A stretch of DNA of 64,000 nucleotides from Escherichia coli (GTDB taxonomy: Bacteria; Pseudomonadota; Gammaproteobacteria; Enterobacterales; Enterobacteriaceae): the NCBI RefSeq assembly GCF_003790525.1, contig NZ_CP033635.1; one strand, written 5' to 3'. Shown here piece after piece: positions 9,701-12,700 of the stretch. Within the stretch, counting starts at the first letter, position 1, and every line of letters starts with the position of its first letter. Made by a program: the position numbers.

Positions 9701-12700
9701 GCGATGATCGGGAATATCAAACCAATTGATGGCCTGCTGATACTGACCATTACGTATTAATCGTCTACCTAATAGTGCACGTAATTTAACATCCGTGGGA
9801 ATGATATCTGGCGAAATATAATAACCGTAACTGCTCTTGTTTAAATCTATAGGTTTTAAAGGATGCTGAGGTGCTGGTACGTTTTTTTCAACAAACGCGT
9901 GTAACTCTGACAAGGTCAAAACGTTTTCTGCCACCCAGGCTAAATCAGCCCAATAGAGATCTTTGGCCTGGTAAAATAATGCGGTGGCCTGAAGATAATC
10001 ATCGCGTTTTAATGCCACAATCGCCTGTTCACTGGCAATACGGCAAGACGGGATGGTAACTTTATCGGCATGATAATAAGGGCTTTCCGGGTCCATACTT
10101 CCCCAGACTTCATCGGTAGAGAACAGCGGGGCTGCGCGAGCATAGTGACGCGTTGCCAGTGGAATATCTCCGGCTCGTAATGCCATTTTTGCTTTTAACC
10201 ATTCGCTTAATCCACTTTCTGGCGCATCCTGCAACAGCGTTTGTGCTAACGAATAATTTCCTGCCCGATACGCCAGTGCTGCCAGGCGATCGCTATAACT
10301 AAATCCTTTAACTCTGTGTTGACTTAGCAACTTAATTAAACGGTCGCGATGCGTTGGACAGGTATAATCTACAAGGTCCTTAGTACAGGCTTCGCTAACA
10401 TACCCCCAGTCATGACGAATAAAGAGCTCTGCGATTACCAGTTGCTGAACCAGAGAATCATTAATAACCGACTCCAGCAGTGGTAAATTTTTCTCCCTGG
10501 TTATATACAGCGAAATCATCCGTAGCGACGCTTTCCCGGAGGGCGAACCCTGGGCCGCTTGCCGGGCATACATTTTTACTGCCGCAGCGACATCACCTTT
10601 TTTCAGATAATAATGCCCAATCTGACCGAGACTGGCGAGAGAGAGCAATTCAGGATCGGCTGCTCCATTACGCACTTCTTCAATGATTTGCTGATAACGC
10701 TGTATGGCCTGCTCAGCAAGTTCCTGATTAAAGCCGCCTTTATTGATTATAAGATCGAGATTGTCGTCAGTGGCATCAAATCCCCCCCTTGCCAGACTAT
10801 ATAGCGTAGCAAGACGCCATTCCCCTTGCTCTGTTTTCGGCAAGGCTAATAATTGCTGAAAGTAAGGGCTATCGTATTTTCCCTGATGAAAATCCTTAGC
10901 TCCTGAATAATAAAGCCTCTGCGCCTTAGATAATGGCTTCTGCAATTTTTGCGTGATTTCCAGTATCCGATTTTGCGCAGGAGGCTCAGCATCATCATCT
11001 GTATTTGCCTGCGTTGCCTCCGCGGGCGTATCTTCATGCCATATCGGTAAATCAGGATCGCGTTTAGCCAACTGTTGTACTTCAAAGACAAAACTGCCAT
11101 TTGGCATTTCCAGCAGTGCGCTATTGCGGTCAGTTAACAGATGGTTAGGAATAAATGGTCCACAGGCATTAACGTTGGCGCTAATTAGTGAGAGAAATAC
11201 AATAACGGAAAGCCGCGATATTTTAGGGGATAACATTAAACTCTCCTTGAATTTTTTGATTGCAGCGCGCCCATCCCAGCGGACTGCTTTCTCCGGCGCG
11301 TAGTTGCCTGGCGCTTCCTCTCACAAAATTCAGGCTGGATGGTCCAGGTTGCACCTGATAGTGGCTGGCTCCATCAGCGAATAGACAATCTGCATTGGAC
11401 ATAATTATTTGTTTTGGCAATGGCGCATCAATTACGCCGCTGTTTTTAAAGGCCAGATCAAAAAGTTGCTTGTCTGCATGTTGAGTAATTATTAACGACC
11501 AGCGCGGAGTCAGCGGTTGATGTTGAATCACAGCTTCAAGCGTTGTCAGGGACCAGGCGCGGCGATCGCCTGCTAATGGTAGCCGAAACCATACCAACCC
11601 CTGTAATCCATGCGGTGGTTGCTGTTCTAAATATTGAATGAAATCGGCAATTGTTTGCGGCGACACACTTAATTCACGCATCTCTTCGGCAACGTATAAC
11701 GGAGCTTCACTCTCGACGCGATTATCACTGGTGAGCGCAGAACCGTAAGCGGGCAATGCGATGAAAAAAGGATGCGTGGTTTGTCTGGCATATTGCTTTA
11801 CCCAACGCTGCGCCAGACTGGCATCTAACAGGCCTTTTTCGGGCGATAGCACGTTATGTACCTGCAAAACCGAAGTGTCCGCAATCCGCAATAATCGGGC
11901 GAGATGTGGTGATTCAAGCCAGGTAGGCAGGACGGTAATGCTAAGTTTTATATTTGTAGGAAGTGCCTGATGTAACGTACTAAGTAGGGTCAGATAGTCC
12001 GGCAATTTTGCTGTTGGCGCGTCATAATCAATTTCTACCCCTACCAGCGTAATACCAGCTTTTTGCCACTCACGTAGGGTTTGTTGAATATGCTGGATAA
12101 TTTGCTGGTTATTAAGCCGTGTAAGCTGACCTTCGAGTCGCGCGACCAGCCAGACCGGGCGACCATCTTGCTTAATAAGTGAAGTATTAACCGTAAAGTG
12201 TCGGATGCCTTCTTGCGGGTGAAATTGCATCCCGAGTACGCGAAGCGTAGAGAAAAGCGGGCGGCTTCGTTTGAGTGCCTCGTTATGTTCTGCCGTCCAG
12301 ACGCGTTGCCAGATATAGACTTGCTGATCAAAGCGAAGCGGTTGTGAAGGGGTAAATAAAATATGCAGCCCGTAGCCCAGGCAGATCAGAAGAAGTGAAG
12401 CTGCAAAAATCCTTTTGCAAGATGGCATATTGTTACGGAATTACGATTATCAACAAGCTGATAGTATACCGACGAAACTATTAACGGAGAACGAATATCT
12501 ACCCGTTCTCCGTCAAAAACCATTACGCAGGCATCGCTTCACGCGGGATAATCGCGCCGCGATACTGAATAACGGTACTTGCGGTCAGGTGCCCGCGTTT
12601 CGCTGCGTCTTCCGCACTGCCGCCCGTCAAACGTACCGCCAGATAACCGGCACTGAAAGAGTCGCCAGCTGCGGTGGTATCGATCACTTTTTCTTTCGGC

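Follow-up and report, generated by a model that had tools for sequence, protein, structure and literature searches.

TfeC is the one characterized member of the DUF3142 family and was described only in late 2025 (2026 volume). Its structures (PDB 8Y6T and 9VTV) carry the title "Chitinase TfeC" and the molecule name "DUF3142 domain-containing protein". Two reviews, PMC13008689 and PMC13162877, both of which cite Zhu et al. (2026, Nat Microbiol 11:240), present TfeC as an antifungal chitinase and as a T6SS4 effector of Yersinia pseudotuberculosis that is reportedly delivered by a type VI secretion system (T6SS). Our literature search for DUF3142 gave an incidental mention in a table and no functional description of the subfamily considered here. 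GH18 chitinases such as Serratia ChiB and hevamine, together with the spore cortex-lytic SleL, have the (beta/alpha)8 barrel architecture that is predicted for the protein studied here. PgaB/PgaA, PelA/PelB, PslG and BcsZ/BcsC are periplasmic exopolysaccharide-processing hydrolases encoded beside TPR proteins. The NlpI-MepS and LpoA-PBP1A systems, in which TPR lipoproteins are adaptors of murein enzymes, also combine an exported TPR-type protein with an envelope enzyme, and this likeness is an analogy only.

We analyzed a 64,000-nt stretch of Escherichia coli DNA (the window), in which two overlapping genes lie on the minus strand behind kdgK. It is somewhat probable, in our view, that they encode a periplasmic DUF3142 glycoside hydrolase and a TPR-like partner that is made together with it. 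The features of the locus, in window coordinates, are as follows.

8504 to 12522, no strand assigned: island of about 4.0 kb with three genes, standing where typical E. coli has an intergenic spacer of 95 bp between yhjJ and kdgK
9194 to 11236, minus strand: partner gene, 680 aa (WP_000950830.1), from the ORF listing and RefSeq
11223 to 12428, minus strand: DUF3142-family gene, 401 aa (WP_001138658.1), from the ORF listing, RefSeq and Pfam
11223 to 11236, minus strand: overlap of 14 nt, in which the DUF3142 gene stops and the partner gene starts
11243 to 11248, minus strand: Shine-Dalgarno sequence AAGGAG of the partner gene, 6 nt ahead of its ATG at 11236 and formed by codons Q394-G395-E396 of the DUF3142 gene
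12429 to 12522, minus strand: spacer of 94 nt that separates kdgK from the DUF3142 gene; it contains no match to a sigma-70 promoter, and the ATG at 12428 lacks a good Shine-Dalgarno
12481 to 12516, minus strand: hairpin with a 16-bp stem, beginning 7 nt past the kdgK stop codon and followed by a poor U-tract (UUAAUAGU)

The 401-aa protein matches Pfam DUF3142 (PF11340) with E = 1.1e-75 and a score of 254.6 over residues 88-285, which cover model positions 1-201 of 202. DUF3142 is the only family that Pfam returns, with no match to Glyco_hydro_18. We found 1,166 homologs in a homolog search, and a motif scan of about 100,000 species genomes gave relatives in 342 of them, mainly in Serratia, Pseudomonas, Klebsiella, Xanthomonas and Escherichia; in public data the DUF3142 family falls into about 2,100 clusters at 50% identity. 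The AlphaFold (AF2) model of the protein (mean pLDDT 89.9, pTM 0.84) shows eight beta/alpha units in order, and the structures closest to it are GH18 chitinases and TfeC. The model and the alignments divide the protein into the following parts.

12354 to 12422, minus strand: N-terminal membrane helix (signal anchor), residues 3-25, a helix in the AF2 model
11526 to 12329, minus strand: (beta/alpha)8 barrel of predicted GH18-like fold, residues 34-301
12021 to 12035, minus strand: codons of E132-I-D134-Y-D136, the proposed catalytic acids, at the C-terminal end of strand beta4
11226 to 11501, minus strand: C-terminal beta-sandwich, residues 310-401, with the conserved pair C348/C389

The original prediction had seen in this protein a single N-terminal hydrophobic helix and, as a weak guess, a resemblance of the segment LVGVEIDYDAP (residues 128-138, nt 12015-12047) to the acidic catalytic motifs of TIM-barrel glycoside-hydrolase-like folds. 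The helix is there, with residues 7-25 hydrophobic; the guess is supported by the predicted AF2 barrel, a check that had been proposed at the outset; and E132, D134 and D136 do not vary among 36 close relatives or among 129 distant ones (the latter at 29-48% identity). The family name, the island origin of the hairpin and the conserved TPR-like nature of the partner had not been part of it.

Across the same 129 representatives the invariant residues are W40, R97, E132, D134, D136, T165, P168, W170, Q189, H191, E241, W280 and D288, and in the AF2 model all of them except E241 and D288 lie where a barrel strand reaches its C-terminal end or immediately beyond that point. Besides the invariant R97, three more arginines are conserved among these representatives (R282 in 128, R290 in 122 and R42 in 109), and four conserved arginines would be unusual for a plain chitinase. 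The C-terminal beta-sandwich has no relative among PDB sequences in a profile search, and C348 and C389 within it probably form a periplasmic disulfide.

In a profile comparison with hhalign, the family aligns with TfeC at a probability of 97%, with 27% identity over 133 columns. Structural alignments give 18-20% identity, so that the overall range is 18-27% over 133-196 positions, a part of the barrel. The TfeC sequence used here was rebuilt from a frameshifted Logan contig and matched to the PDB chain; a homolog search with an 83-aa TfeC fragment returned gene fragments only. D134, D136, R97, W170 and Q189 are common to the family and TfeC, whereas in TfeC Q stands at the position of E132 and Y at that of H191. 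By sequence, TfeC aligns to residues 92-238 of the 401-aa protein only, with the beta1-beta2 part unaligned. Moreover, TfeC is a barrel-only protein of 262 aa that lacks the C-terminal beta-sandwich, while the 401-aa protein consists of a membrane helix, the barrel and the sandwich. TfeC is reportedly delivered by T6SS and has no known TPR-like partner gene, whereas the 401-aa protein is membrane-anchored and has one.

The relation to GH18 is of another kind. With a hevamine sequence, hhalign gives a probability of 0.2%, and it is thus the fold that carries the kinship with GH18. The GH18 motif DxxDxDxE ends in the catalytic Glu, whereas the 401-aa protein has V-x-x-E-x-D-x-D, with Asp at the position of Glu. 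The SxGG and MxYD motifs of GH18 are not evident in the protein, which has instead an invariant Q189-x-H191 on beta6. We suggest from their position on the strand only that D134 and D136 are equivalent to the Asp and Glu of GH18. These observations make the 401-aa protein a putative DUF3142-family glycoside hydrolase of predicted GH18 chitinase barrel architecture.

The partner gene lies directly downstream of the DUF3142 gene in 79 of 80 loci from 80 genomes of 11 genera. The RefSeq annotation of E. coli SMS-3-5 gives both coding sequences (401 and 680 aa) exactly as in our ORF listing, and the 14-nt overlap shared by the two (11223-11236) is the one predicted at the outset. In other species the overlap is exactly 14 nt in 77 of the 80 loci, with 57 distinct junction sequences, which indicates that it is more than chance. 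Of the 77 overlapping junctions, 76 contain an SD-like motif, and the overlap with its internal Shine-Dalgarno is retained from Escherichia to Pseudomonas and Iodobacter. The earlier proposal of an operon with translational coupling is thus strongly supported by comparison: since the partner's start codon and Shine-Dalgarno both fall within the ORF upstream of it, in a conserved arrangement, the two genes are predicted to be a translationally coupled pair. The junction is also a clean natural case of dual coding, in which the ribosome-binding site and start codon of the partner fix the C-terminal Gln-Gly...x-Val of the enzyme. When all ORFs of 82 loci (11-12 genera) were clustered, no third conserved gene was found beside the pair, and the pair is a self-contained module conserved across Proteobacteria. 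Homologs of the partner occur in the same genera as the DUF3142 protein; Hafnia has the DUF3142 enzyme without the partner. Three candidates were set aside. In an apparent fusion of 1,176 aa (P0289) the partner signal peptide is kept internally, which points to a frameshift or assembly artifact and gives no evidence of fusion. Neither the 710-aa neighbor of a short DUF3142 gene in Novosphingobium nor the TPR protein of 557 aa that lies upstream in Xanthomonas is a homolog of the partner.

The partner begins with a signal peptide, followed by an invariant Ala-Cys-Gly-Pro and an all-alpha solenoid that the AF2 model (pLDDT 81) predicts to be TPR-like. It belongs to no Pfam family, its TPR hits there being weak, and has no sequence relative in the PDB. 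The E. coli protein matches no TPR profile at E<=0.001, while 2 of 31 homologs match TPR_16 at this threshold. In Foldseek its best matches are TPR proteins, but these are generic (TM-scores below 0.25), with no specific PDB fold match; the idea of an (alpha/alpha)-toroid lyase or hydrolase, raised by the invariant H603-Y604-R605, was dropped, as no such fold was matched. The end of the signal peptide fits the strict lipobox [LVI][ASTVI][GAS]C in 5 of 77 cases, with N, R, Q, Y, H or D at position -2, and the lipoprotein status of the partner is doubtful because the lipobox is non-canonical. Some homologs of the partner have a C-terminal membrane helix. Both the DUF3142 protein and the partner carry export signals, and the conserved Cys pairs fit a periplasmic location.

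At the start of the DUF3142 gene, the ATG lies at 12428 and the stop codon of kdgK extends to 12523, and the measured spacer of 94 nt agrees with the predicted distance of about 95 bp. The bases upstream of the ATG (...CCGTAACAAT-ATG) hold no GGAG-like Shine-Dalgarno, in keeping with the weak site that had been proposed. The hairpin formerly placed at 12483-12512, without a strong U-tract, falls inside the folded element at 12481-12516; a 121-nt region around it folds at -34.3 kcal/mol (z = -3.1 against shuffles). Judged as a rho-independent terminator, it sets a strong 16-bp stem against a tail (TTAATAGT) with only 4 T in the next 8 bases; the terminator scan did not call it and found no canonical terminator in the spacer. 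It may act as a weak terminator or as an element that affects RNA stability. Four Escherichia species have its sequence unchanged, hence without covariation, and Rfam gives no match to it or to any other part of the island. One point of the prediction needs correcting: homology with other E. coli ends exactly at the kdgK stop codon, and the hairpin is therefore DNA of the inserted island rather than the ancestral terminator of kdgK. In other genera the pair sits directly behind unrelated genes on the same strand; in Serratia and Chania, for example, the start of the DUF3142 gene overlaps the stop of panZ by 4 nt. Read-through from kdgK is consistent with this placement and with the spacer's lack of a sigma-70 match and of a canonical terminator. 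In SMS-3-5, where no promoter belonging to the pair itself is recognizable, read-through of a leaky hairpin probably accounts for at least part of its transcription.

On the reading that we favor, a periplasmic hydrolase made with its solenoid partner, the N-terminal helix would tether the enzyme to the periplasmic face of the inner membrane. Homologs in Pseudomonas and Klebsiella, which show a lipobox (L-[AS]-[GA]-C) at the same position in the alignment, would be held by a lipid anchor. Aided by E132, the residues D134 and D136 where beta4 ends may take the roles of the GH18 Asp-x-Glu pair and cleave a beta-linked glycan containing N-acetylhexosamine by substrate-assisted, retaining catalysis; chito-oligosaccharides and the glycan strands of peptidoglycan are the candidate substrates. 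The ribosome-binding site in the last codons of the enzyme gene, with a start 14 nt before its stop, would tie the enzyme to the partner, and the partner may bind the enzyme or present or limit its polymeric substrate. Should the enzyme be active, it would define a GH18-like barrel that works with Asp in place of Glu, and it would provide either a new form of murein or envelope-glycan remodeling or a new way of handling chitin oligosaccharides in the periplasm.

The pair differs from the exopolysaccharide systems in that no synthase, porin or export genes are conserved near it, only the two genes themselves. Its partner has no beta-barrel porin domain, and structural similarity to these systems is lower than that to GH18. 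As for adaptors of the NlpI or LpoA type, the partner shows neither sequence nor specific fold similarity to them, and, unlike the partner, they have genes that do not overlap those of their enzymes. A more specific form of our reading, tentative and rather unlikely as it stands, is a two-component envelope machine of a kind not described before. In this form a GH18-like lineage with E-x-D-x-D would sit at the inner membrane and act on the cell's own GlcNAc polymer (peptidoglycan or another envelope glycan), gated by the solenoid partner, which the 14-nt junction would supply in fixed proportion. The junction, if so used, would be so constrained that the last residues of the enzyme are dictated.

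Two readings with a narrower substrate seem to us unlikely. In the first, the enzyme would be an N-acetylglucosaminidase or another glycan-strand cleaver acting on the cell's own murein, with the partner as a regulator or scaffold like NlpI or LpoA/LpoB. It must contend with the lack of a murein-binding domain (LysM, SPOR or PG_binding) in the protein, with neighborhoods in which cell-division and murein genes are not conserved and the adjacency of M14 is a single case, and with the chitin on which the only characterized relative reportedly acts. In the second, which we hold to be just as doubtful, a periplasmic chitodextrinase would trim imported chitin oligosaccharides and the partner would bind the oligosaccharide or the enzyme. 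Chitobiose transporter, hexosaminidase and nag genes are not conserved beside the pair, however, and most hosts (the P. fluorescens group and Escherichia) are not known chitin degraders; furthermore, an inner-membrane tether with an obligatory 680-aa partner is foreign to known chitodextrinases, and the invariant arginines would be left unexplained.

The replacement of the catalytic Glu of GH18 by Asp, together with the presence of GH18-fold lectins and inhibitors (XIP-I, narbonin, tamarind lectin and IDGF-2) among the structural matches, could also be explained by a barrel that is a pseudo-enzyme, that is, a chitinase-like lectin that binds glycan and forms a structural or signaling module with the TPR protein. 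We think this improbable: the three acidic residues, with His, Gln, Tyr and Trp on the catalytic face, are invariant at 29-48% identity, as is typical of an active site, and TfeC, which is reported to be active, has the same D-x-D. Least probable of all is a weapon exported against fungal or bacterial competitors in the manner of TfeC, with the downstream protein as immunity protein, chaperone or adaptor, because, although the Pfam family is shared with a T6SS4 effector, the tight two-gene layout resembles effector-immunity pairs and E. coli strains vary in whether they have the island, there are no type VI secretion genes in the RefSeq annotation of the window's span and 80 loci show none that is conserved in the neighborhood of the pair, a membrane anchor or lipobox would keep the enzyme in the producer's own envelope, the partner is far bigger than typical immunity proteins and is itself exported, PADLOC gave nothing meaningful and no toxin family was matched, and the history of the island suggests vertical descent.

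The G+C content of the island is 0.37-0.49, against 0.53-0.57 in its flanks. We found no mobility genes, flanking direct repeats or IS ends at the island, and NCBIfam has no family for any of its three proteins. It occurs in about 30 of the 5,426 complete genomes of E. coli, and its significance for E. coli biology is minor. The same island is present at the same site in E. marmotae, in Escherichia sp. E1V33 and in a third Escherichia, and its divergence tracks species divergence within the genus, which suggests vertical descent. The island is probably ancestral in Escherichia, rare today and lost from most strains. In the plasmid collection, the only copies are seven distant ones, and the records that carry them are non-mobilizable and measure 0.5-3.2 Mb, the size of megaplasmids or secondary replicons.

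A 4-kb query across the region gives a 100% match to the E. coli SMS-3-5 chromosome (NC_010498.1), in which the RefSeq gene order is yhjJ, a 176-aa hypothetical protein, a 680-aa hypothetical protein, a "DUF3142 domain-containing protein" and kdgK. The features of the window considered here, with the 401-aa protein called the enzyme and the 680-aa protein its partner, are as follows.

8504-12522, island of about 4.0 kb between yhjJ and kdgK, G+C lower than in the flanks
8686-9216, + strand, ORF of 176 aa, lipobox-like signal (…LTGFYS-C), G+C very low at ~0.37
9194..11236, − strand, partner gene, 680 aa (ORF list)
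11223..12428, − strand, enzyme gene, 401 aa (ORF list)
11243-11248, − strand, AAGGAG motif six bases before the partner ATG at 11236, in codons Gln394-Gly395-Glu396
12481-12516, 16-bp hairpin, from RNA folding of the kdgK-enzyme spacer

The enzyme and partner ORFs share 14 nt in the ORF list, which bears out the overlap of the original prediction. Scanning a single genome for each species gave 342 loci that encode relatives, and the best 80 of them, from 11 genera, were analysed. The partner gene is immediately downstream of the enzyme gene in 79 of these 80 loci, and in 77 its start falls inside the enzyme gene, exactly 14 nt from the end of the stop codon. These 77 overlapping junctions use ATG (61), TTG (11) or GTG (5) as the partner start, preceded in all but one (76/77) by a GGAG-type motif. 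The enzyme ends in Gln-Gly-[Gly/Glu]-x-x-Val-x-Pro (window 11226-11249; junctions of comparison loci L008-L087), and its residue 398 covaries with the partner start, being Asn, Asp, Tyr or His with ATG, Leu with TTG and Arg or Ser with GTG. Because AAGGAG lies inside codons 394-396 and residue 398 varies with the start codon, the C-terminal residues of the enzyme are dual-coded with the Shine-Dalgarno and start codon of the partner. Clustering of all ORFs of 82 loci shows no other gene conserved across genera near the pair, and more distant enzyme relatives also keep a large unannotated downstream gene. Hafnia paralvei (L023 9872-11137) has a DUF3142 gene alone, with no partner, and "Enterobacteriaceae bacterium B14" (L007 9309-13308) has two tandem partner paralogues, with a spacer from the enzyme gene instead of the 14-nt overlap. 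A 1,176-aa ORF on a metagenome contig (P0289; L006 525-4055) runs on from the DUF3142 gene through the partner gene; it retains the partner signal peptide internally and more probably reflects a frameshift or an assembly error than a true fusion.

Homologs of the partner are found in the same genera as those of the enzyme. The partner has no Pfam family, with weak TPR matches in a minority of members, and no sequence relative in PDB; its AlphaFold model (pLDDT 81) is all-helical and matches generic TPR and solenoid proteins only, at TM-scores below 0.25. After a signal peptide comes an invariant Ala-Cys-Gly-Pro; most members have a polar or charged residue just ahead of its Ala, and only 5 of 77 partner sequences fit a strict lipobox. 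We call the partner periplasmic. Some homologs (L098 8175-10340 from Xanthomonas sacchari, and P0289) have at the C-terminus an additional membrane helix and then Arg-Arg-Arg, which would place them in the inner membrane and thus speaks against the N-terminal Cys as an outer-membrane lipid anchor.

Residues 88-285 of the enzyme match DUF3142 (PF11340) in Pfam, with the full model covered (E = 1.1e-75). An AlphaFold2 model built on 36 homologs (mean pLDDT 89.9, pTM 0.84) contains the following parts.

Residues 3-25, N-terminal helix
Residues 34 to 301, eight alternating strand-helix units
Residues 34-39, 61-70, 92-98, 128-135, 161-166, 185-189, 221-226 and 275-281, barrel strands
Residues 310-400, all-beta domain

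The eight strand-helix units agree with the TIM-barrel, glycoside-hydrolase-like fold that had been proposed from sequence. The N-terminus of the E. coli enzyme, like that of its Serratia homologs, has a 19-residue hydrophobic helix after Lys-Arg; Pseudomonas and Klebsiella homologs show a lipobox instead (L-A-G-C or L-S-G-C), often followed by Asp, Glu or Gln. Both are predicted to tether the enzyme to a membrane with its barrel in the periplasm, and the conserved C348 and C389 of the beta-sandwich fit an oxidising compartment. By the E. coli lipoprotein sorting rule, Asp at +2 means inner-membrane retention, which may apply to the homologs bearing it.

Conservation was read in the 36 close homologs and in 129 cluster representatives at only 29-48% identity to the E. 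coli protein. Across these sequences W40, R97, E132, D134, D136, T165, P168, W170, Q189, H191, E241, W280 and D288 are invariant and Y38, Q41, W44, Y228, F281 and R282 nearly so. All except E241 and D288 are located at or just past the C-terminal ends of the modelled barrel strands, the face at which TIM-barrel enzymes bind substrate. The single solved relative found by sequence with the family profile (8Y6T/9VTV, E = 2.3e-11) is a molecule named "DUF3142 domain-containing protein" in an entry titled "Chitinase TfeC from Yersinia pseudotuberculosis"; its sequence was reconstructed from a Logan contig and checked against the PDB chain. Profile-sequence comparison of TfeC with the family gives a probability of 97% and 27% identity over 133 columns, from strand beta3 to beta7. 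TfeC and the enzyme family have R97, G130, D134, D136, Y145, T165, W170 and Q189 in common, whereas TfeC has Gln at E132 and Tyr at H191 and, at 262 aa, consists of the barrel only. In GH18, beta4 ends with G-[VIL]-D-[IL]-D-W-E-[YF]-P, of which the second Asp and the Glu do substrate-assisted catalysis; G130-V-E-I-D-Y-D-A-P138 of the enzyme ends beta4 at the position of this motif. Homology to GH18 is not detectable by sequence, either in Pfam or with the family profile against an approximate hevamine sequence. From strand position and spacing only, we propose D134 and D136 as the catalytic pair, with E132 in a supporting role, since TfeC keeps both Asp and not E132, and the GH18 motif likewise ends beta4.

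The source that two reviews cite for TfeC is Zhu et al., Nat Microbiol 11:240. In their passages on TfeC, these 2026 reviews (PMC13008689, PMC13162877) describe an antifungal chitinase delivered by T6SS4. A native TfeC-like gene on a Logan contig (L088 338-1120), in a copy interrupted by frameshifts, starts with a Sec-type signal peptide (MGRTAQLLLVSCLLALFMPPAMA, then EVSD), and the crystallised construct (8Y6T) begins just after such a peptide, which one would not expect of a protein reported to be a T6SS effector.

We lean toward the view that the enzyme is a membrane-tethered glycoside hydrolase, with its barrel in the periplasm, that would use D134 and D136 to cleave a glycan containing beta-linked N-acetylhexosamine, and that the solenoid partner would be produced and work with it. 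Peptidoglycan is a tentative candidate for the substrate, suggested by the location of the enzyme, the fold matches to SleL and Cwp19, the conserved arginines and one adjoining Peptidase_M14 gene, from the family to which the murein peptide amidase MpaA belongs, that ends 4 nt before a DUF3142 gene (L094 5174-6946, metagenomic). Chito-oligosaccharides, about as tentative, are suggested by the activity reported for TfeC and by the Xanthomonas pair, which lies behind an ECF, FecR and TonB-receptor cluster. On this 509-kb plasmid of X. sacchari (L098 278-8140), an ECF sigma factor, a FecR-like protein, a TonB-dependent receptor and an unrelated 557-aa TPR protein are encoded upstream on one strand, possibly an uptake-linked context. 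That the protein is instead a non-catalytic lectin is improbable in view of its invariant set of acidic residues together with His, Gln, Tyr and Trp. Still less credible is a secreted weapon with its immunity protein, as the enzyme carries a membrane anchor, the size of the partner speaks against it, and T6SS genes are absent from the RefSeq annotation of the window span and none is conserved near the pair in the 80 loci. Known already are the named family (DUF3142) and the familiar fold class; the literature searched contains no description of the subfamily architecture, the obligatory Pfam-less partner family or the conserved dual-coded junction. The pair, with its putative hydrolase, offers enzymologists and envelope biologists a solid lead but does not overturn expectations.

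The kdgK stop codon ends at 12523, leaving a 94-nt spacer to the enzyme ATG at 12428, and the bases preceding this ATG (CCGTAACAAT) contain no Shine-Dalgarno, in line with the weak one and the distance of about 95 bp originally predicted. (The 425-aa kdgK ORF at 12523-13800, − strand, which starts from a TTG, is an artefact of choosing the first possible start; RefSeq annotates 309 aa.) The spacer region folds at −34.3 kcal/mol (z = −3.1 vs shuffles). A hairpin lacking a strong U-tract had been anticipated, and only 4 of the 8 bases directly past the 16-bp stem are T; a consensus scan calls neither the hairpin as a terminator nor a sigma-70 promoter in the spacer. All four Escherichia sequences compared have the hairpin unchanged. 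The original description is thus borne out in all its elements, with one qualification: the hairpin belongs to the inserted island and is not the ancestral kdgK terminator, because the similarity shared with ~5,400 other E. coli genomes ends exactly at the kdgK stop codon. In other genera the pair closely follows unrelated genes on its own strand, with a 4-nt overlap between its start and the panZ stop in Serratia and Chania and a gap of 10 nt in Iodobacter and 35 nt in Klebsiella. These close upstream genes and the lack of a promoter match in the spacer make it plausible that in E. coli, too, the pair is transcribed from the upstream gene.

No repeats, RNA families or mobility genes were found in the island (8504-12522). 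It is carried by about 30 of 5,426 complete E. coli genomes; in a typical strain the yhjJ-kdgK spacer is just 95 bp. In ~170 other complete E. coli genomes an alternative island, made up of small ORFs, occupies this site (five hypothetical ORFs in E. coli SCU-482, L002 1505-3907), which makes the spacer a hotspot for variable content. The same three-gene island is present between kdgK and yhjJ in E. marmotae, Escherichia sp. E1V33 and a third Escherichia lineage, and in E1V33 the entire surrounding 11 kb is collinear, at 92.8% identity. These comparisons point to an island that is probably old in Escherichia and lost from most E. coli, rather than a recent import. The 176-aa ORF, which has no family in Pfam or NCBIfam, is convergent with the partner gene, and the two overlap by 23 nt at the 3′ end of the latter. 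Both E. marmotae and another Escherichia conserve this ORF, which is also present, at ~89% nucleotide identity, in the ~170 E. coli genomes with the alternative island.
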